Assembly: GCF_988243305.1 (NCBI RefSeq)
Contig: NZ_OZ547136.1
DNA: 64,000 nucleotides
Direction: 5' to 3' (one strand)
Shown here: positions 25,135-35,536 of the stretch, piece by piece
How positions within the stretch are numbered: position 1 is the first letter of the stretch
Layout: every line of letters begins with the position of its first letter
Notes under the pieces: model-generated
Databases searched by the model: none
Told to the model about the DNA's origin: nothing
Seen by the model: only the letters and a program-made list of their open reading frames with translations
Translations under genes and position numbers: made by a program

Positions 25135-25399
25135 TGCAATCTGTCCCTGAAGGCGTGATTCAGGCACCAGAATCACCCGACGCCCCGGAGAACTCAGTCT
25201 GTGCAGACTGAGTACAGGCAATGGCATCTTCTGGCCATCCGTCTGTGACCGGAACGGTTACGCGTACGGCTGTCCGGAATTTCAGCCGAATATCATTCAT
25301 CCCTGATATTGCCGGGTCTCACGGTCAGTGATGAACGTGATGTTGTCAGCCCCCGGCCTTTATTTCCTCTCATTTATACACATTGTAAGGATTTCACTC

Positions 25400-25879
25400 A
25401 TGAAAATCGTTTCTCAGAACACAACTGCTCTTTCTTCAGCCACAGCACCAGGGAATAACCAGCCCCAACTGGTTGCTACTCCCGTCCCTGATGAACAACG
25501 TATCAGCTTCTGGCCGCAGCATTTTGGCCTCATTCCACAGTGGGTGACCCTGGAGCCCCGTGTCTTCGGCTGGATGGACCGTCTGTGTGAAGACTACTGC
25601 GGTGGTATCTGGAATCTGTACACCCTGAACAACGGCGGGGCATTTATGGCACCCGAACCGGATGACGATGATGACGAAACATGGGTACTGTTCAATGCCA
25701 TGAACGGTAACCGCGCTGAAATGAGTCCGGAAGCTGCCGGCATTGCTGCCTGTCTGATGACGTACAGTCATCATGCCTGTCGTACGGAGTGTTATGCCAT
25801 GACGGTCCATTATTACCGGCTGCGGGATTACGCCCTGCAGCATCCGGAATGCAGCGCCATTATGCGCATCATCGACTGA
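25400..25879 (+). CDS. Antirestriction protein KlcA/ArdB-like (YfjX/YafX family)
   Basis: 159 aa from MKIVSQNTTA...; acidic stretch PEPDDDDDETW; typical klcA position. Confidence 0.65.
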   Translation: MKIVSQNTTALSSATAPGNNQPQLVATPVPDEQRISFWPQHFGLIPQWVTLEPRVFGWMDRLCEDYCGGIWNLYTLNNGGAFMAPEPDDDDDETWVLFNAMNGNRAEMSPEAAGIAACLMTYSHHACRTECYAMTVHYYRLRDYALQHPECSAIMRIID

Positions 25880-25894
25880 ATGGAGAGAAGTACA

Positions 25895-26371
25895 ATGCAA
25901 CAGCTTTCCTTTCTGCCCGGAGAGATGACGCCCGGCGAGCGCAGCCTCATTCAACGGGCCCTGAAAACCCTGGACCGCCATCTTCATGAACCCGGCGTGG
26001 CCTTCACCTCCACCCGTGCGGCACGAGAATGGCTGATTCTGAACATGGCGGGACTGGAGCGTGAAGAGTTCCGGGTGCTGTATCTGAACAACCAGAATCA
26101 GCTGATTGCCGGTGAAACCCTCTTCACCGGCACCATCAACCGCACGGAAGTCCATCCCCGTGAAGTGATTAAACGCGCCCTGTATCACAATGCCGCTGCT
26201 GTGGTGCTGGCACACAATCACCCGTCCGGTGAAGTCACACCCAGCAAGGCAGACCGCCTTATCACGGAACGTCTGGTACAGGCACTGGGCCTGGTGGATA
26301 TCCGGGTGCCGGACCATCTGATAGTCGGTGGCAGCCAGGTTTTCTCCTTTGCCGAACATGGTCTGCTTTAA
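25895..26371 (+). CDS. RadC-like JAB-domain protein (YeeS/YfjY/YkfG family)
   Basis: Start at MQQLSFLPGE with RBS ggagag; JAMM-like motif HNHPSGEVTPSKAD. Confidence 0.7.
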   Translation: MQQLSFLPGEMTPGERSLIQRALKTLDRHLHEPGVAFTSTRAAREWLILNMAGLEREEFRVLYLNNQNQLIAGETLFTGTINRTEVHPREVIKRALYHNAAAVVLAHNHPSGEVTPSKADRLITERLVQALGLVDIRVPDHLIVGGSQVFSFAEHGLL

Positions 26372-26433
26372 CCCGTCACAACCACATCACACCTGTTTTC
26401 ACTTTTATCTTCTGTCTTCAGAGGTATCCCACC

Positions 26434-26655
26434 ATGAAAATCATCACCCGTGGCGAAGCCATACATATTCACCGTCAGCATCCGGCATCCCGTCTTTTTC
26501 CGTTCTGTACCGGCAAATACCGCTGGCACGGCAGTGCTGAAGCGTATACCGGTCGTGAAGTGCAGGATATTCCCGGTGTGCTGGCCGTGTTTGCAGAACG
26601 CCGTAAGGACAGTTTTGGTCCGTATGTCCGGCTGATGAGCGTCACCCTGAACTGA
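26434..26655 (+). CDS. DUF987 protein (YeeT/YkfH-like)
   Basis: 73 aa; conserved position between radC-like and the antitoxin gene. Confidence 0.5.
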   Translation: MKIITRGEAIHIHRQHPASRLFPFCTGKYRWHGSAEAYTGREVQDIPGVLAVFAERRKDSFGPYVRLMSVTLN

Positions 26656-26817
26656 TGTTCCGTCACCCGGAAAACGAGTACGACTGGCTGAGCTCAGACG
26701 CCGCTGTGGATGAGGTCCTGCTCATCAACGAATACACCTTTACCGAAGCCGGTCTGCGCGCCGGCTGACCCGTCATCGTTAAACTATCATTCACCGATTT
26801 TCTGTGAGGATTTTATC

Positions 26818-27186
26818 GTGTCAGACACACTTTCCGGGACAACGCATCCCGATGACAATGACGACCATCCCTGGTGGGGACTACCCTGCACAGTGACGCC
26901 CTGTTTCGGCGCCCGTCTGGTGCAGGAGGGTAACCGGTTGCATTACCTTGCCGACCGTGCCGGTATCAGAGGCCGGTTCAGAGATGCGGATGCGTACCCT
27001 CTGGACCAGGCCTTTCCGCTGCTGATGAAACAACTGGAATTAATGCTCACCAGTGGTGAACTGAATCCCCGCCATCAGCATACCGTGACACTGTATGCGA
27101 AGGGGCTGACCTGTGAAGCCGACACCCTCGGCTCCTGTGGTTACGTTTATCTGGCTGTTTATCCGACACCTGAAACGAAAAAGTAA
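26818..27186 (+). CDS. Type IV antitoxin of the CbeA/YeeU family
   Basis: GTG start with RBS gagga; [13 protein letters not shown]...[31 protein letters not shown]... matches YeeU/CbeA. Confidence 0.7.
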
Positions 27187-27275
27187 ACCACCGGAATAAC
27201 CTTCTGCTCCGGCCTGGTGTTTTCACCACGCCACTGTCCCATTTTTTATCTCTGCATATCAGGAAAATCTTCAGT

Positions 27276-27597
27276 ATGAAAACATTACCCGACACGCATG
27301 TACGGGAGGTATCGTGCTGCCCGTCTCCCGTCACCATCTGGCAGACACTGCTCACCCGGTTACTGGACCAGCATTACAGCCTTACGCTGAATGACACACC
27401 GTTCGCCGATGAACGTGTGATTGAGCAGCATATTGAGGCAGGTATTGCACTGTGTGATGCGGTGAACTTTCTCGTGGAAAAATACGCACTGGTACGAACC
27501 GACCAGCCGGGATTCAGCGCAGGAACTTCGTCGCAGTTAATCAACAGCATTGATATTCTCCGGGCACGCCGGGCAACAGGTCTGATGACCCGCAGCA
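27276..27597 (+). pseudogene. Type IV toxin of the CbtA/YeeV family, 3' end cut by Tn10
   Basis: [46 protein letters not shown]... is CbtA-like; from 27598 the frame reads into the IS10 outside end; the original 3' end resumes after Tn10 at 35053. Confidence 0.7.
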
Positions 27598-28923
27598 CTG
27601 ATGAATCCCCTAATGATTTTTATCAAAATCATTAAGTTAAGGTAGATACACATCTTGTCATATGATCAAATGGTTTCGCCAAAAATCAATAATCAGACAA
27701 CAAGATGTGCGAACTCGATATTTTACACGACTCTCTTTACCAATTCTGCCCCGAATTACACTTAAAACGACTCAACAGCTTAACGTTGGCTTGCCACGCA
27801 TTACTTGACTGTAAAACTCTCACTCTTACCGAACTTGGCCGTAACCTGCCAACCAAAGCGAGAACAAAACATAACATCAAACGAATCGACCGATTGTTAG
27901 GTAATCGTCACCTCCACAAAGAGCGACTCGCTGTATACCGTTGGCATGCTAGCTTTATCTGTTCGGGCAATACGATGCCCATTGTACTTGTTGACTGGTC
28001 TGATATTCGTGAGCAAAAACGACTTATGGTATTGCGAGCTTCAGTCGCACTACACGGTCGTTCTGTTACTCTTTATGAGAAAGCGTTCCCGCTTTCAGAG
28101 CAATGTTCAAAGAAAGCTCATGACCAATTTCTAGCCGACCTTGCGAGCATTCTACCGAGTAACACCACACCGCTCATTGTCAGTGATGCTGGCTTTAAAG
28201 TGCCATGGTATAAATCCGTTGAGAAGCTGGGTTGGTACTGGTTAAGTCGAGTAAGAGGAAAAGTACAATATGCAGACCTAGGAGCGGAAAACTGGAAACC
28301 TATCAGCAACTTACATGATATGTCATCTAGTCACTCAAAGACTTTAGGCTATAAGAGGCTGACTAAAAGCAATCCAATCTCATGCCAAATTCTATTGTAT
28401 AAATCTCGCTCTAAAGGCCGAAAAAATCAGCGCTCGACACGGACTCATTGTCACCACCCGTCACCTAAAATCTACTCAGCGTCGGCAAAGGAGCCATGGG
28501 TTCTAGCAACTAACTTACCTGTTGAAATTCGAACACCCAAACAACTTGTTAATATCTATTCGAAGCGAATGCAGATTGAAGAAACCTTCCGAGACTTGAA
28601 AAGTCCTGCCTACGGACTAGGCCTACGCCATAGCCGAACGAGCAGCTCAGAGCGTTTTGATATCATGCTGCTAATCGCCCTGATGCTTCAACTAACATGT
28701 TGGCTTGCGGGCGTTCATGCTCAGAAACAAGGTTGGGACAAGCACTTCCAGGCTAACACAGTCAGAAATCGAAACGTACTCTCAACAGTTCGCTTAGGCA
28801 TGGAAGTTTTGCGGCATTCTGGCTACACAATAACAAGGGAAGACTTACTCGTGGCTGCAACCCTACTAGCTCAAAATTTATTCACACATGGTTACGCTTT
28901 GGGGAAATTATGAGGGGATCTCC

Positions 28924-28926
<3 letters not shown>
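27598..28926 (+). mobile_element. IS10-left
   Basis: IS10 outside end and 402-aa transposase; the last few bases of the inside end differ from the canonical terminus. Confidence 0.85.
27705..28913 (+). CDS. IS10 transposase (IS4 family)
   Basis: 402 aa MCELDILHDSLYQFCPELHLKRLNSLTLACHALLDC... Confidence 0.9.
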   Translation: MCELDILHDSLYQFCPELHLKRLNSLTLACHALLDCKTLTLTELGRNLPTKARTKHNIKRIDRLLGNRHLHKERLAVYRWHASFICSGNTMPIVLVDWSDIREQKRLMVLRASVALHGRSVTLYEKAFPLSEQCSKKAHDQFLADLASILPSNTTPLIVSDAGFKVPWYKSVEKLGWYWLSRVRGKVQYADLGAENWKPISNLHDMSSSHSKTLGYKRLTKSNPISCQILLYKSRSKGRKNQRSTRTHCHHPSPKIYSASAKEPWVLATNLPVEIRTPKQLVNIYSKRMQIEETFRDLKSPAYGLGLRHSRTSSSERFDIMLLIALMLQLTCWLAGVHAQKQGWDKHFQANTVRNRNVLSTVRLGMEVLRHSGYTITREDLLVAATLLAQNLFTHGYALGKL

Positions 28927-29926
<1,000 letters not shown>

Positions 29927-29941
29927 CTAATTTTTGTTGAC

Positions 29942-29991
29942 ACTCTATCATTGATAGAGTTATTTTACCACTCCCTATCAGTGATAGAGAA
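29942..29991. promoter_or_regulatory. tet operators O1/O2 in the divergent tetR-tetA promoter region
   Basis: Palindromes actctatcattgatagagt and tccctatcagtgatagaga between tetR and tetA. Confidence 0.9.
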
Positions 29992-29998
29992 AAGTGAA

Positions 29999-31204
29999 AT
30001 GAATAGTTCGACAAAGATCGCATTGGTAATTACGTTACTCGATGCCATGGGGATTGGCCTTATCATGCCAGTCTTGCCAACGTTATTACGTGAATTTATT
30101 GCTTCGGAAGATATCGCTAACCACTTTGGCGTATTGCTTGCACTTTATGCGTTAATGCAGGTTATCTTTGCTCCTTGGCTTGGAAAAATGTCTGACCGAT
30201 TTGGTCGGCGCCCAGTGCTGTTGTTGTCATTAATAGGCGCATCGCTGGATTACTTATTGCTGGCTTTTTCAAGTGCGCTTTGGATGCTGTATTTAGGCCG
30301 TTTGCTTTCAGGGATCACAGGAGCTACTGGGGCTGTCGCGGCATCGGTCATTGCCGATACCACCTCAGCTTCTCAACGCGTGAAGTGGTTCGGTTGGTTA
30401 GGGGCAAGTTTTGGGCTTGGTTTAATAGCGGGGCCTATTATTGGTGGTTTTGCAGGAGAGATTTCACCGCATAGTCCCTTTTTTATCGCTGCGTTGCTAA
30501 ATATTGTCGCTTTCCTTGTGGTTATGTTTTGGTTCCGTGAAACCAAAAATACACGTGATAATACAGATACCGAAGTAGGGGTTGAGACGCAATCGAATTC
30601 GGTATACATCACTTTATTTAAAACGATGCCCATTTTGTTGATTATTTATTTTTCAGCGCAATTGATAGGCCAAATTCCCGCAACGGTGTGGGTGCTATTT
30701 ACCGAAAATCGTTTTGGATGGAATAGCATGATGGTTGGCTTTTCATTAGCGGGTCTTGGTCTTTTACACTCAGTATTCCAAGCCTTTGTGGCAGGAAGAA
30801 TAGCCACTAAATGGGGCGAAAAAACGGCAGTACTGCTCGGATTTATTGCAGATAGTAGTGCATTTGCCTTTTTAGCGTTTATATCTGAAGGTTGGTTAGT
30901 TTTCCCTGTTTTAATTTTATTGGCTGGTGGTGGGATCGCTTTACCTGCATTACAGGGAGTGATGTCTATCCAAACAAAGAGTCATCAGCAAGGTGCTTTA
31001 CAGGGATTATTGGTGAGCCTTACCAATGCAACCGGTGTTATTGGCCCATTACTGTTTGCTGTTATTTATAATCATTCACTACCAATTTGGGATGGCTGGA
31101 TTTGGATTATTGGTTTAGCGTTTTACTGTATTATTATCCTGCTATCGATGACCTTCATGTTAACCCCTCAAGCTCAGGGGAGTAAACAGGAGACAAGTGC
31201 TTAG
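29999..31204 (+). CDS. tetA: Tetracycline efflux MFS transporter TetA (class B)
   Basis: 401 aa from MNSSTKIALVITLLDAMGIGLIMPVLPTLLREF... Confidence 0.95.
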   Translation: MNSSTKIALVITLLDAMGIGLIMPVLPTLLREFIASEDIANHFGVLLALYALMQVIFAPWLGKMSDRFGRRPVLLLSLIGASLDYLLLAFSSALWMLYLGRLLSGITGATGAVAASVIADTTSASQRVKWFGWLGASFGLGLIAGPIIGGFAGEISPHSPFFIAALLNIVAFLVVMFWFRETKNTRDNTDTEVGVETQSNSVYITLFKTMPILLIIYFSAQLIGQIPATVWVLFTENRFGWNSMMVGFSLAGLGLLHSVFQAFVAGRIATKWGEKTAVLLGFIADSSAFAFLAFISEGWLVFPVLILLAGGGIALPALQGVMSIQTKSHQQGALQGLLVSLTNATGVIGPLLFAVIYNHSLPIWDGWIWIIGLAFYCIIILLSMTFMLTPQAQGSKQETSA

Positions 31205-31316
31205 TTATTTCGTCACCAAATGATGTTATTCCGCGAAATATAATGACCCTCTTGATAACCCAAGAGGGCATTTTTTACGATAAAGAAGATTTAGCTTCAA
31301 ATAAAACCTATCTATT

Positions 31317-31910
31317 TTATTTATCTTTCAAGCTCAATAAAAAGCCGCGGTAAATAGCAATAAATTGGCCTTTTTTATCGGCAAGCTCTTTTAGGTTTTT
31401 CGCATGTATTGCGATATGCATAAACCAGCCATTGAGTAAGTTTTTAAGCACATCATCATCATAAGCTTTAAGTTGGTTCTCTTGGATCAATTTGCTGACA
31501 ATGGCGTTTACCTTACCAGTAATGTATTCAAGGCTAATTTTTTCAAGTTCATTCCAACCAATGATAGGCATCACTTCTTGGATAGGGATAAGGTTTTTAT
31601 TATTATCAATAATATAATCAAGATAATGTTCAAATATACTTTCTAAGGCAGACCAACCATTTGTTAAATCAGTTTTTGTTGTGATGTAGGCATCAATCAT
31701 AATTAATTGCTGCTTATAACAGGCACTGAGTAATTGTTTTTTATTTTTAAAGTGATGATAAAAGGCACCTTTGGTCACCAACGCTTTTCCCGAGATCTCA
31801 TCTATTGAAACAGCTTGATAGCCTTTTTCAACAAACAATATTCGTGCTGAGTTAACCAGTGATTGATAGGTACTCTTAAAATTTTCTTGTTGATGATTTT
31901 TATTTTCCAT
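31317..31910 (-). CDS. tetC: Tn10 TetC (TetR-like transcriptional regulator)
   Basis: 197 aa from MENKNHQQ; conserved position between tetA and tetD. Confidence 0.8.
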   Translation of the reverse strand: MENKNHQQENFKSTYQSLVNSARILFVEKGYQAVSIDEISGKALVTKGAFYHHFKNKKQLLSACYKQQLIMIDAYITTKTDLTNGWSALESIFEHYLDYIIDNNKNLIPIQEVMPIIGWNELEKISLEYITGKVNAIVSKLIQENQLKAYDDDVLKNLLNGWFMHIAIHAKNLKELADKKGQFIAIYRGFLLSLKDK

Positions 31911-31997
31911 GATAGATTTAAAATAACATACCGTCAGTATGTTTATGGTATCATGATGATGTGGTCGTGACAATCTTAAGAACATTTAGGTTATTTT

Positions 31998-32414
31998 ATG
32001 TATATTGAACAGCATTCTCGCTATCAAAATAAAGCTAATAACATCCAATTAAGATATGATGATAAGCAGTTTCATACAACGGTTATCAAAGATGTTCTAT
32101 TATGGATTGAACATAATTTAGATCAGTCTTTACTGCTTGATGATGTGGCGAATAAAGCGGGTTATACCAAGTGGTATTTTCAGCGGCTGTTCAAAAAAGT
32201 AACAGGGGTCACACTGGCTAGCTATATTCGTGCTCGTCGTTTGACGAAAGCGGCTGTTGAGTTGAGGTTGACGAAAAAAACTATCCTTGAGATCGCATTA
32301 AAATATCAATTTGATTCCCAACAATCTTTTACACGTCGATTTAAGTACATTTTTAAGGTTACACCAAGTTATTATCGGCGTAATAAATTATGGGAATTGG
32401 AGGCAATGCACTGA
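31998..32414 (+). CDS. tetD: Tn10 TetD (MarA/SoxS-like AraC-family regulator)
   Basis: 138 aa; two AraC HTH units; stop codon lies in the IS10-right inside end as in Tn10. Confidence 0.85.
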   Translation: MYIEQHSRYQNKANNIQLRYDDKQFHTTVIKDVLLWIEHNLDQSLLLDDVANKAGYTKWYFQRLFKKVTGVTLASYIRARRLTKAAVELRLTKKTILEIALKYQFDSQQSFTRRFKYIFKVTPSYYRRNKLWELEAMH

Positions 32415-32632
32415 GAGATCCCCTCATAATTTCCCCAAAGCGTAACCATGTGTGAATAAATTTTGAGCTAGTAGGGTTGCAGCCACGAGTAAGTCTTCCC
32501 TTGTTATTGTGTAGCCAGAATGCCGCAAAACTTCCATGCCTAAGCGAACTGTTGAGAGTACGTTTCGATTTCTGACTGTGAACCGCCCCGGGAATCCTGG
32601 AGACTAAACTTCCTGAGAAAGAGGTAAACAGG

Positions 32633-32959
32633 ATGACTAAAAATACTCGTTTTTCCCCCGAAGTCCGTCAACGGGCAGTCCGTATGGTTCTGGAAAGTCA
32701 GAGCGAATATGACTCACAATGGGCGACAATTTGTTCCATTGCTCCAAAGATTGGCTGTACGCCGGAGACTCTGCGTGTCTGGGTTCGCCAGCATGAGCGG
32801 GATACCGGGGGCGGTGATGGAGGGCTCACCACCGCTGAACGTCAGCGTCTGAAAGAGCTGGAACGTGAAAATCGTGAACTGCGCCGCAGTAACGATATCC
32901 TTCGCCAGGCTTCCGCTTATTTTGCGAAGGCGGAGTTCGACCGCCTCTGGAAAAAATGA
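32633..32959 (+). CDS. IS629-like OrfA (IS3-family transposase N-terminal protein)
   Basis: [60 protein letters not shown]... Confidence 0.8.
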
Positions 32960-33846
32960 TGCCACTGCTGGATAAGCTGCGTGAGCAGTACGGGGTCGGA
33001 CCGCTATGCAGCGAACTGCATATTGCCCCGTCAACGTATTACCACTGTCAGCAACAGCGACATCATCCGGATAAACGCAGTGCCCGTGCGCAGCGCGATG
33101 ACTGGCTGAAGAAAGAGATACAGCGCGTATACGATGAAAATCACAAGGTATACGGTGTGCGTAAAGTCTGGCGTCAGTTGTTACGGGAAGGTATCAGAGT
33201 GGCCAGATGCACTGTGGCACGTCTCATGGCGGTTATGGGACTTGCCGGTGTTCTCCGGGGTAAAAAGGTCCGTACGACCATCAGCCGGAAAGCCGTTGCC
33301 GCAGGCGACCGCGTAAACCGTCAGTTCGTGGCAGAACGACCTGACCAGCTGTGGGTGGCTGATTTTACTTACGTCAGCACATGGCGGGGCTTCGTCTATG
33401 TGGCGTTCATCATTGATGTGTTTGCCGGATACATCGTGGGGTGGCGGGTCTCATCGTCCATGGAAACGACATTCGTGCTGGATGCACTGGAGCAGGCGTT
33501 ATGGGCCCGTCGACCGTCCGGCACGGTCCATCACAGTGATAAAGGTTCTCAGTATGTATCGCTGGCCTACACACAGCGGCTTAAGGAAGCCGGATTACTG
33601 GCATCAACAGGAAGTACAGGCGACTCGTATGACAACGCGATGGCGGAGAGCATCAATGGTCTTTACAAAGCGGAGGTAATACACCGTAAGAGCTGGAAAA
33701 ACCGTGCAGAAGTGGAACTGGCCACACTCACGTGGGTGGACTGGTATAACAATCGACGATTGCTGGAAAGGCTGGGCCATACTCCTCCGGCAGAAGCAGA
33801 AAAAGCTTATTATGCTTCCATCGGAAACGATGATCTGGCAGCCTGA
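32956..33846 (+). CDS. IS629-like OrfB (DDE integrase/transposase core; normally expressed as OrfAB by -1 frameshift)
   Basis: 296 aa with DDE-type core (…WVADFTYV…HHSDKGSQY…DNAMAES…). Confidence 0.8.
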
Positions 33847-34945
33847 GTTCACAGATAAAACACTCTCCAGGAAACCCGGGGCGGTTCACTGTGTTAGCCT
33901 GGAAGTGCTTGTCCCAACCTTGTTTCTGAGCATGAACGCCCGCAAGCCAACATGTTAGTTGAAGCATCAGGGCGATTAGCAGCATGATATCAAAACGCTC
34001 TGAGCTGCTCGTTCGGCTATGGCGTAGGCCTAGTCCGTAGGCAGGACTTTTCAAGTCTCGGAAGGTTTCTTCAATCTGCATTCGCTTCGAATAGATATTA
34101 ACAAGTTGTTTGGGTGTTCGAATTTCAACAGGTAAGTTAGTTGCTAGAACCCATGGCTCCTTTGCCGACGCTGAGTAGATTTTAGGTGACGGGTGGTGAC
34201 AATGAGTCCGTGTCGAGCGCTGATTTTTTCGGCCTTTAGAGCGAGATTTATACAATAGAATTTGGCATGAGATTGGATTGCTTTTAGTCAGCCTCTTATA
34301 GCCTAAAGTCTTTGAGTGACTAGATGACATATCATGTAAGTTGCTGATAGGTTTCCAGTTTTCCGCTCCTAGGTCTGCATATTGTACTTTTCCTCTTACT
34401 CGACTTAACCAGTACCAACCCAGCTTCTCAACGGATTTATACCATGGCACTTTAAAGCCAGCATCACTGACAATGAGCGGTGTGGTGTTACTCGGTAGAA
34501 TGCTCGCAAGGTCGGCTAGAAATTGGTCATGAGCTTTCTTTGAACATTGCTCTGAAAGCGGGAACGCTTTCTCATAAAGAGTAACAGAACGACCGTGTAG
34601 TGCGACTGAAGCTCGCAATACCATAAGTCGTTTTTGCTCACGAATATCAGACCAGTCAACAAGTACAATGGGCATCGTATTGCCCGAACAGATAAAGCTA
34701 GCATGCCAACGGTATACAGCGAGTCGCTCTTTGTGGAGGTGACGATTACCTAACAATCGGTCGATTCGTTTGATGTTATGTTTTGTTCTCGCTTTGGTTG
34801 GCAGGTTACGGCCAAGTTCGGTAAGAGTGAGAGTTTTACAGTCAAGTAATGCGTGGCAAGCCAACGTTAAGCTGTTGAGTCGTTTTAAGTGTAATTCGGG
34901 GCAGAATTGGTAAAGAGAGTCGTGTAAAATATCGAGTTCGCACAT
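33728..34945 (-). pseudogene. IS10-right transposase, C-terminus replaced by read-through into IS629
   Basis: Identical to the IS10-left transposase for about 350 residues, then diverges (…ANTVNRPGFPGECF…) at the IS629 junction. Confidence 0.8.
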
Positions 34946-35113
34946 CTTGTTGTCTGATTATTGATTTTTGGCGAAACCATTTGATCATATGACAAGATGT
35001 GTATCTACCTTAACTTAATGATTTTTACCAAAATCATTAGGGGATTCATCAGCCCGCAGCAACTACAGAACGGTAAATAACATTACCCGGGGGAAGCATC
35101 CGGAGGCGAAACA

Positions 35114-35536
35114 ATGAAACTGGCCCTGACGCTGGAAGCCGACAGCATTAACGTGCAGGCACTGAACATGGGGCGCATTGTCGTTGACGTCGATGGTGTT
35201 AATCTCGCTGAACTGTTTAATAAAGTCGCGGAAAATGGTTATTCACTCCGCGTGGTGGATGAGCGTGTCACTACCGAAACACCGGCGACCTCTGCCAGCC
35301 CTCATCAGTTGCCGGAAGACAATACAGTGATACAGAGCGTAATGCCATTAGCCACAGAAACGGCGCTGGATATTCTGATTGTGTGGCTGCAGGACAATAT
35401 CGACTGCGAATCGGGGATTATCTTCGACAACGATGAGGATAAAACGGATTCGGCAGCACTGTTGCCCTGCATTGAACAGGCCAGGGAAGATATCCATACC
35501 CTGCGCCAACTACAGCTTCTGCACCAGAACCGGTAA
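35114..35536 (+). CDS. Hypothetical protein in the position downstream of cbtA (YeeW-like position)
   Basis: 140 aa ORF beginning 53 nt after the Tn10 right end; family not verified. Confidence 0.4.
   Translation: MKLALTLEADSINVQALNMGRIVVDVDGVNLAELFNKVAENGYSLRVVDERVTTETPATSASPHQLPEDNTVIQSVMPLATETALDILIVWLQDNIDCESGIIFDNDEDKTDSAALLPCIEQAREDIHTLRQLQLLHQNR

Follow-up and report, generated by a model that had tools for sequence, protein, structure and literature searches.

A 37-codon open reading frame between a DUF987 gene and cbeA is most probably the 3' remnant of a deleted 215-codon gene

In the window, i.e. the whole stretch of 64,000 nt analysed here (NCBI RefSeq assembly GCF_988243305.1, contig NZ_OZ547136.1), an open reading frame (ORF) of 37 codons lies in between a DUF987 gene and a gene for a type IV antitoxin of the cbeA/yeeU family, and its position raises the question whether it encodes a small protein of the toxin-antitoxin module or is left over from something else. 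An earlier note on this DNA had described an ATG-initiated frame of 37 codons located between the two genes, on the same strand as both, and the ORF listing agrees; frame and peptide were borne out exactly, while the coordinates given, 26656–26769, proved to be shifted by +1 and should read 26655–26768. The analysis points, with a probability of about 0.9, to a pseudogene fragment, the 3' remnant of a deleted 215-codon gene carrying an accidental start codon.

A megablast search with the stretch from DUF987 to cbeA revealed the region in 4869 of 5426 complete Escherichia coli genomes, in which three length classes occur: that of the window, one that is ~89 nt shorter (yeeT-cbeA of K-12) and one that is ~550 nt longer. 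In the long class an annotated gene of 644–648 nt (214–215 aa), from here on referred to as the parent gene, is located between the DUF987 gene and cbeA. Examples of its product are WP_000094921.1 and WP_000086769.1, and the RefSeq names given to it are "hypothetical protein", "antitoxin of toxin-antitoxin stability system" and, in one recent record, "DUF8835 domain-containing"; the C-terminal end of the translation reads ...FWLYRQLENEYDWLTSDAAVDETLLINKYTFTEAGLRAG, followed by the stop. Of the 5426 genomes, 1941 have the parent gene in intact form, and in 13 out of 13 parent-bearing loci inspected (11 intact, 2 frameshifted) the flanks are like those of the window, with DUF987 and cbeA on the same strand.

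Alignment of the window with the long form (alignment A1) shows that they correspond through the DUF987 stop, after which there is a single gap of ~553 nt and then a resumed in-frame match comprising the last ~36 parent codons (~113 nt), the stop codon and the full 49-nt spacer up to cbeA. In other genomes the deletion allele is ~92–93% identical to the intact locus over 162 nt (E 8e-58), a stretch over which the window is also aligned in A1. When the parent protein was run with tblastn against the junction-bearing copies, all 96 of the 96 gave a match at parent residues 178/179–215. The parts of the locus are as follows, all on the + strand.

26655–26768, +, ORF of 37 codons plus TGA stop, ATG start, translation MFRHPENEYDWLSSDAAVDEVLLINEYTFTEAGLRAG
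26655–26657, +, junction ATG, its A coming from the DUF987 stop according to A1 and the junction contexts
26658–26669, +, codons 2–5 (FRHP), TTCCGTCACCCGGAA, without parent counterpart (LYRQL there)
26670–26768, +, codons 6–37 plus stop, colinear and in frame with parent residues 184–215 and stop, ENEYDWLTSDAAVDE.LLIN.YTFTEAGLRAG
26769–26817, +, the 49-nt spacer from the parent gene to cbeA, kept whole, containing the cbeA Shine-Dalgarno sequence GAGG and identical downstream of intact parent genes

Clean in-frame homology thus begins at codon 6 (parent E184) and runs to the stop, from which there are 49 nt to the start of cbeA. At the other end the A of the ATG is also the A of the TGA that ends DUF987 (cTGATG), a one-base overlap; the TG that follows has two possible sources, both of which fit the sequence, namely the Leu179 codon (TTG/CTG) and the ATG of the parent itself (context TTCTGATGAGC). 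Missing from the window are ~178 parent codons together with the ribosome-binding site, so that ~17% of the protein length remains. The segment TTCCGTCACCCGGAA has three mismatches to the colinear parent sequence TACCGTCAACTGGAA and two to CACCGTCACCCGGAA, a near-repeat 94 nt upstream in the intact gene; because it is closer to this 13–14-nt near-repeat inside the parent than to the colinear copy, the deletion may, from the sequence, have been a compound or complex rearrangement. Inspection of the breakpoint gave no clear microhomology. Taken by itself a 37-codon open frame is within chance expectation; what goes beyond it is that the frame is homologous, in register, to the 3' part of a longer gene.

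The parent is a real, constrained gene; its family is widespread and its fold is predicted with high confidence. In a set of 5.8 billion proteins 3240 homologues were found at E ≤ 1e-5, nearly all of ~214 aa, from Escherichia, Salmonella, Klebsiella, Citrobacter and more distant Proteobacteria, and an exhaustive HMMER search with the parent gave 3269 matches among cluster representatives, each of which stands for one 50%-identity cluster. Profile searches gave a single PHROG match for the parent, phrog_5162, in which function is not assigned, and no match in PADLOC or in the versions of Pfam and NCBIfam searched, while the 37-aa peptide had no match in any of Pfam, NCBIfam, PHROG and PADLOC. 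The literature search returned nothing on DUF8835 and little on DUF987, and neither it nor the family searches gave evidence behind the "antitoxin" label of the parent.

The C-terminal motif of the family is WLYRQLE.EYD.LTSD.AVDE.I.AN.YTFTE.G.RFG, and in an alignment of 121 parent-family sequences W178, Y180, L183, N203, F207 and G211 are conserved to ≥90%. An AlphaFold2 model of the parent built on this alignment (predicted local distance difference test score, pLDDT, 96.8; predicted template modelling score, pTM, 0.89) places helices and a beta-sheet core in residues 1–178, and the second half of helix 164–190, helix 193–202 and a tail in residues 179–215. When comparing the deletion alleles with the family it was found that W178 is deleted and that Y180F and L183P are present in every one of them, the latter falling within the long helix of the model, while N203, F207 and G211 are retained. 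The fragment is, according to the model, not a self-contained domain. It stands at the position of the family and is homologous to it in sequence, with far less than the full length of ~214 aa, and the ORF is a remnant of the parent family, not a member of it in a functional sense.

The parent gene itself is found in varied states among strains; intact, frameshifted (L001), frameshifted with an internal stop (L024), 3'-truncated (L025), as a 5' stub (K-12 type) and as a 3' stub (the window), and this variety is typical of ordinary, recurrent gene decay in CP4-type islands. In some E. coli assemblies proteins of 342–343 aa (P0029–P0040) fuse the parent and CbeA (PF06154) in a single frame. In other cases loss of the stop by a change from TGA to TGC lengthens the parent (L021 419–1102, 227 aa) or the remnant (L030) by 12–13 codons towards cbeA.

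The deletion allele is common. The junction, searched for with a probe of 70 nt across it and counted when at least 80% was covered, was found in 3052 of the 5426 complete E. coli genomes; the places matched by the probe number about 9,750, and the median number of places per genome matching the module region is 3. In RefSeq, as annotated by the Prokaryotic Genome Annotation Pipeline (PGAP), neither a coding sequence nor a pseudogene is given at the remnant in any deletion-allele record inspected. For the study of variation 96 copies were collected, consisting of the window, 12 complete-genome loci, 2 IMG/VR contigs, 80 metagenome contigs and L005, the contigs of viral and metagenome origin being retrieved by a pattern in which the bases of stop and start are free, CTGAACTNANNTTCCGTCACCCGG. 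A cross-species scan of genome contigs with DUF987 gave only 4 loci, two of them probably contaminants, and the cross-species comparison therefore consists of E. coli genomes and metagenome contigs. DUF987 and remnant sequences of the E. coli type were also seen in L005 (Mesorhizobium caraganae LMG 24397, a contig of 464 nt with coverage 0.74) and L007 (a Lachnospiraceae metagenome-assembled genome, a contig of 2.8 kb); with 95–100% protein identity to the query on tiny low-coverage contigs of unrelated organisms they are most likely assembly contamination.

Among the 94 readable copies there are 30 unique segments of 170 nt, and no frameshift or premature stop was found in any of the 94. One metagenome copy (L082) has ATA in place of ATG and in another copy (L030) the TGA is replaced by TGC and the frame reads on to 50 codons; hits in the start and the stop are expected under neutral drift and both kinds are seen. 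A simulation with ~40 distinct mutations gave a probability of 0.26 for no premature stop, and the open frame can therefore be explained without selection. The ratio of non-synonymous to synonymous substitution (dN/dS) was calculated pairwise by the method of Nei and Gojobori, and is listed below together with the number of variable sites at the first, second and third codon position.

Remnant ORF, 96 copies: dN/dS 1.02; variable sites 12:14:10
Remnant, 32 homologous codons: dN/dS 1.05; variable sites 12:14:9
DUF987 at the same loci, 79 copies with 52 unique sequences: dN/dS 0.10; variable sites 12:9:35
cbeA at the same loci: dN/dS 0.26; codon positions not comparable owing to length variants
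The same 32 codons in 7 intact parent genes: dN/dS 0.21; variable sites 4:3:7
Whole parent gene, 7 intact genes: dN/dS 0.22; variable sites 31:17:40
The same 32 codons in 11 intact parent genes, 4 divergent ones added: dN/dS 0.36; variable sites 12:10:16

Differences between the remnant and its nearest intact relative are mostly non-synonymous, e.g. 4 non-synonymous to 0 synonymous or 2 to 0. As measured on these sequences, the remnant shows relaxed selection and the peptide no sign of purifying selection.

Pairing with the anti-Shine-Dalgarno sequence was computed over the 20 nt upstream of each start. The ORF has no Shine-Dalgarno sequence, its value of -2.5 kcal/mol lying at the background level (median -2.2 kcal/mol), while the values for DUF987, cbeA, cbtA and the intact parent are -7.1, -6.0, -4.3 and -7.8 kcal/mol, respectively. 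The AAGGGG motif of the intact parent is gone with the deletion.

When analysing modules that lack the segment it was found that in K-12-type modules, where the gap between yeeT and cbeA is 73 nt, and in Escherichia albertii a different deletion has occurred and the segment is wholly gone. The K-12-type deletion keeps the Shine-Dalgarno sequence, the ATG and the first 8–9 codons of the parent and removes the rest to ~35 nt before the start of cbeA, with the cbeA/cbtA pair retained intact. In a Klebsiella oxytoca module there are 20 nt between the DUF987 gene and the cbeA homologue. Since the modules of K-12, E. albertii and K. oxytoca do without it, the segment is dispensable for the toxin-antitoxin pair, and as it is not found in all modules bearing cbeA and cbtA, it does not behave as a third component of the CbeA/CbtA type IV module. 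It mirrors the deletion seen in the window and is shared between a K-12-like E. coli (L003 1737–1787) and E. albertii (L004 2741–2791); in K-12 the first 8–9 codons of the parent are fused to the spacer, giving an ORF of 16 codons, MSRIIATTGPFLADFL and stop. In one E. coli assembly (L111 1680–1845) cbeA is shortened and directly followed, at the place expected for cbtA, by a gene for a group II intron reverse transcriptase (RVT_1, GIIM).

We propose that the ancestral module had the order RadC – DUF987 – a DUF8835-family gene of 214–215 aa – cbeA – cbtA. A deletion of ~553 nt would have taken the ribosome-binding site and the first ~178 codons of the parent and joined the DUF987 stop directly to its last ~36 codons, and the junction would read TGATG by accident, so that what survives of the frame begins with an ATG and ends at the stop of the parent. 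The allele, which is common, would also be old, and in E. coli it would have spread and recombined among CP4-type islands that are paralogous to each other. The fragment would encode no functional product and drift neutrally, staying open because 37 codons rarely gain a stop. The data show directly the homology and its frame, the junction and how frequent it is, the relaxed selection, the missing Shine-Dalgarno sequence and the structural incompleteness of the fragment; how the events followed one another, that the junction arose only once and that the fragment lacks a function are what we infer from the comparisons, and a function for the fragment is unlikely.

A stop-start overlap of the type UGAUG or AUGA permits termination-reinitiation and is the classic layout of translational coupling. 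The ORF might accordingly be read as a genuine small protein gene, reinitiated after DUF987 at UGAUG, with a 37-aa peptide that has a role in the island or in the toxin-antitoxin module, e.g. as a mimic of the C-terminal helices of the intact parent protein that paralogous islands of the cell encode; this is considered very improbable. Several observations do weigh against a mere gene fragment. The 37 codons are intact in 92 of the 94 readable copies, the stop and start overlap by one base and low-level incidental translation by TGATG stop-start coupling is possible on this layout. The exact peptide has been deposited as "hypothetical protein" from at least 1000 contigs, including UniProt Q8VQQ1, i.e. 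it is called by some pipelines. The non-synonymous fraction of rare variants, 0.56–0.64 in the remnant as compared with 0.49–0.53 in DUF987 and 0.64–0.67 in cbeA, has no discriminating power. The copies are not only related but also visibly mosaic, and much of the variation that separates remnant types is seen in intact parent alleles too, e.g. L109; variation shared in this way means that recombination confounds the pairwise dN/dS and that the sequences are not independent samples. Finally, among 13 complete-genome copies (the window and 12 fetched loci, L008–L019) the first ~30 nt after the junction (26655–26690) are nearly invariant, with one change, in L017, and the remainder of the remnant varies at ~1 site in 4; the invariant part may mark where recombination has joined a conserved DUF987 side to a variable cbeA side. 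The frequency of the allele (3052 of 5426 complete genomes) also favours a small protein, and with a median of 3 module places per genome and the parent in 1941 of the 5426, remnant and parent may well occur together in one cell, a co-occurrence that was not counted.

A small protein is nevertheless disfavoured by a dN/dS of ~1 without third-position bias between strongly constrained flanking genes, by the replacement of family-invariant residues, including the proline placed inside a helix, by the lack of a Shine-Dalgarno sequence and by the start-less (L082) and stop-less (L030) variants. The segment is missing in K-12-type modules with a working cbeA/cbtA pair, and the fragment is not predicted to fold on its own. 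The peptide is absent from the examined part of the novel-peptide tables of the Ribo-seq study of O157:H7 Sakai (PMC5597208), and a text search of the literature gave no match to the peptide string or to Q8VQQ1. More specifically, the ORF could give a microprotein that is made at a low level by coupling, keeps the last two helices of the parent and binds or titrates the partners of the DUF8835-family C-terminus. This is regarded as very improbable; if true, a microprotein acting on what the parent C-terminus contacts, e.g. a full-length paralogue encoded by another island of the cell, could account for the high frequency of the allele. Alternatively the segment may be kept for a non-coding role, as a promoter, an operator, a structure in the 5' untranslated region or a small RNA for cbeA-cbtA, with the open frame being incidental. 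The 49-nt spacer and the first ~30 nt of the remnant do vary little among the complete-genome copies and the ATG lies within a predicted hairpin in the minimum-free-energy fold, but the promoter scan gave no σ70-like promoter on the + strand at 26300–27300, the RNA fold is ordinary (z = -1.10, with 29 of 200 shuffles folding as well), and the best Rfam match is no better than E 0.57. Furthermore, K-12-type modules have lost the segment to ~35 nt before cbeA and still have the pair intact, and the remnant, with a variable-site density of 0.19 per site, is about as variable as the flanking genes (0.16–0.23), which leaves this explanation improbable. A chance open frame in unrelated intergenic DNA was also considered, as frames of such lengths are common and 94 ORFs of ≥20 aa overlap the 5.5 kb around the site; its likelihood is negligible, since it is refuted by the colinear in-frame homology of the last 32 codons and stop and by the identical downstream spacer in A1.

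With the ORF taken as a fragment of the parent gene, the suggestion in the earlier note of an unannotated small protein of the toxin-antitoxin module was not supported, given the dN/dS of ~1, the lack of codon-position bias and of a Shine-Dalgarno sequence and the absence of the segment from K-12-type modules. Its other option, "just intergenic sequence", came closest; it is probably right as regards lack of function and imprecise in so far as the alignment reveals an in-frame gene remnant in place of plain spacer. The check proposed there, conservation of the frame, shows the frame kept in nearly all deletion copies and in every intact parent inspected without thereby supporting a small protein, and as a test it is misleading because the frame is inherited from the parent gene and not from selection on a small protein. 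That a frame is conserved in homologous loci is hence insufficient as a test for small genes, as a frame coming from a deleted larger gene persists without selection. For annotation, the 37-aa "hypothetical protein" entries would be better treated as a pseudogene fragment of a DUF8835-type gene. The feature is the remnant of an already catalogued gene and nothing new in kind, and the parent gene is a more interesting object than its remnant.

The genes around the ORF in the window are the following.

25328–25879, antirestriction gene
25880–26371, RadC/JAB gene
26434–26655, +, DUF987 gene (YeeT-like, 73 codons plus TGA), Pfam PF06174, E 1.4e-39
26818–27186, +, cbeA/yeeU-family type IV antitoxin gene (GTG start at 26818, 122 codons), Pfam PF06154, E 6e-54
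27276–27597, +, cbtA-family toxin gene, interrupted after codon 107, Pfam PF06755, E 1.6e-59

For the RadC gene the longest ORF starts with the ATG at 25880, which overlaps the antirestriction stop (TGAATG) and has no Shine-Dalgarno sequence (+0.4 kcal/mol), while a second in-frame ATG five codons downstream, at 25895, has one of -6.4 kcal/mol; judging from these signals the latter is probably the true start. Direct reading of the window sequence, both for the IS10 end and for the target duplication, revealed an IS10-flanked, Tn10-like element with tetR and tetA at 27598–35052 (~7.5 kb, shorter than canonical Tn10), inserted in cbtA after codon 107 with a perfect 9-bp duplication, CCCGCAGCA, at 27589–27597 and 35053–35061. 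The 3' end of cbtA resumes at 35062–35117 and overlaps the start of a DUF5983 (YeeW-like) gene at ATGA. With a transposon inside cbtA, the toxin of this module is inactivated.

When compared with known systems, the ORF stands closest to the parent gene of CP4-type islands, with which it shares codons 6–37 and the stop, the 49-nt spacer and the flanking genes; it differs from it in that the MFRHP of the window is unmatched, Y180 and L183 are replaced, ~178 codons and the ribosome-binding site are missing, and dN/dS is ~1 as compared with 0.2–0.36. Remnants of genes after internal or 5' deletions also occur in prophage-like islands of E. coli that are decaying (in K-12 the regions CP4-44, CP4-6 and CP4-57, for instance), which are of the same island type and have the same gene order, but unlike those the deletion in the window leaves an ATG-headed frame abutting the upstream stop, and therefore resembles a coupled small gene. 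With coupled small ORFs (UGAUG/AUGA) the ORF shares the one-base overlap of stop and start; unlike them it is without Shine-Dalgarno sequence, purifying selection or a family of its own, and the overlap would be a by-product of the deletion.
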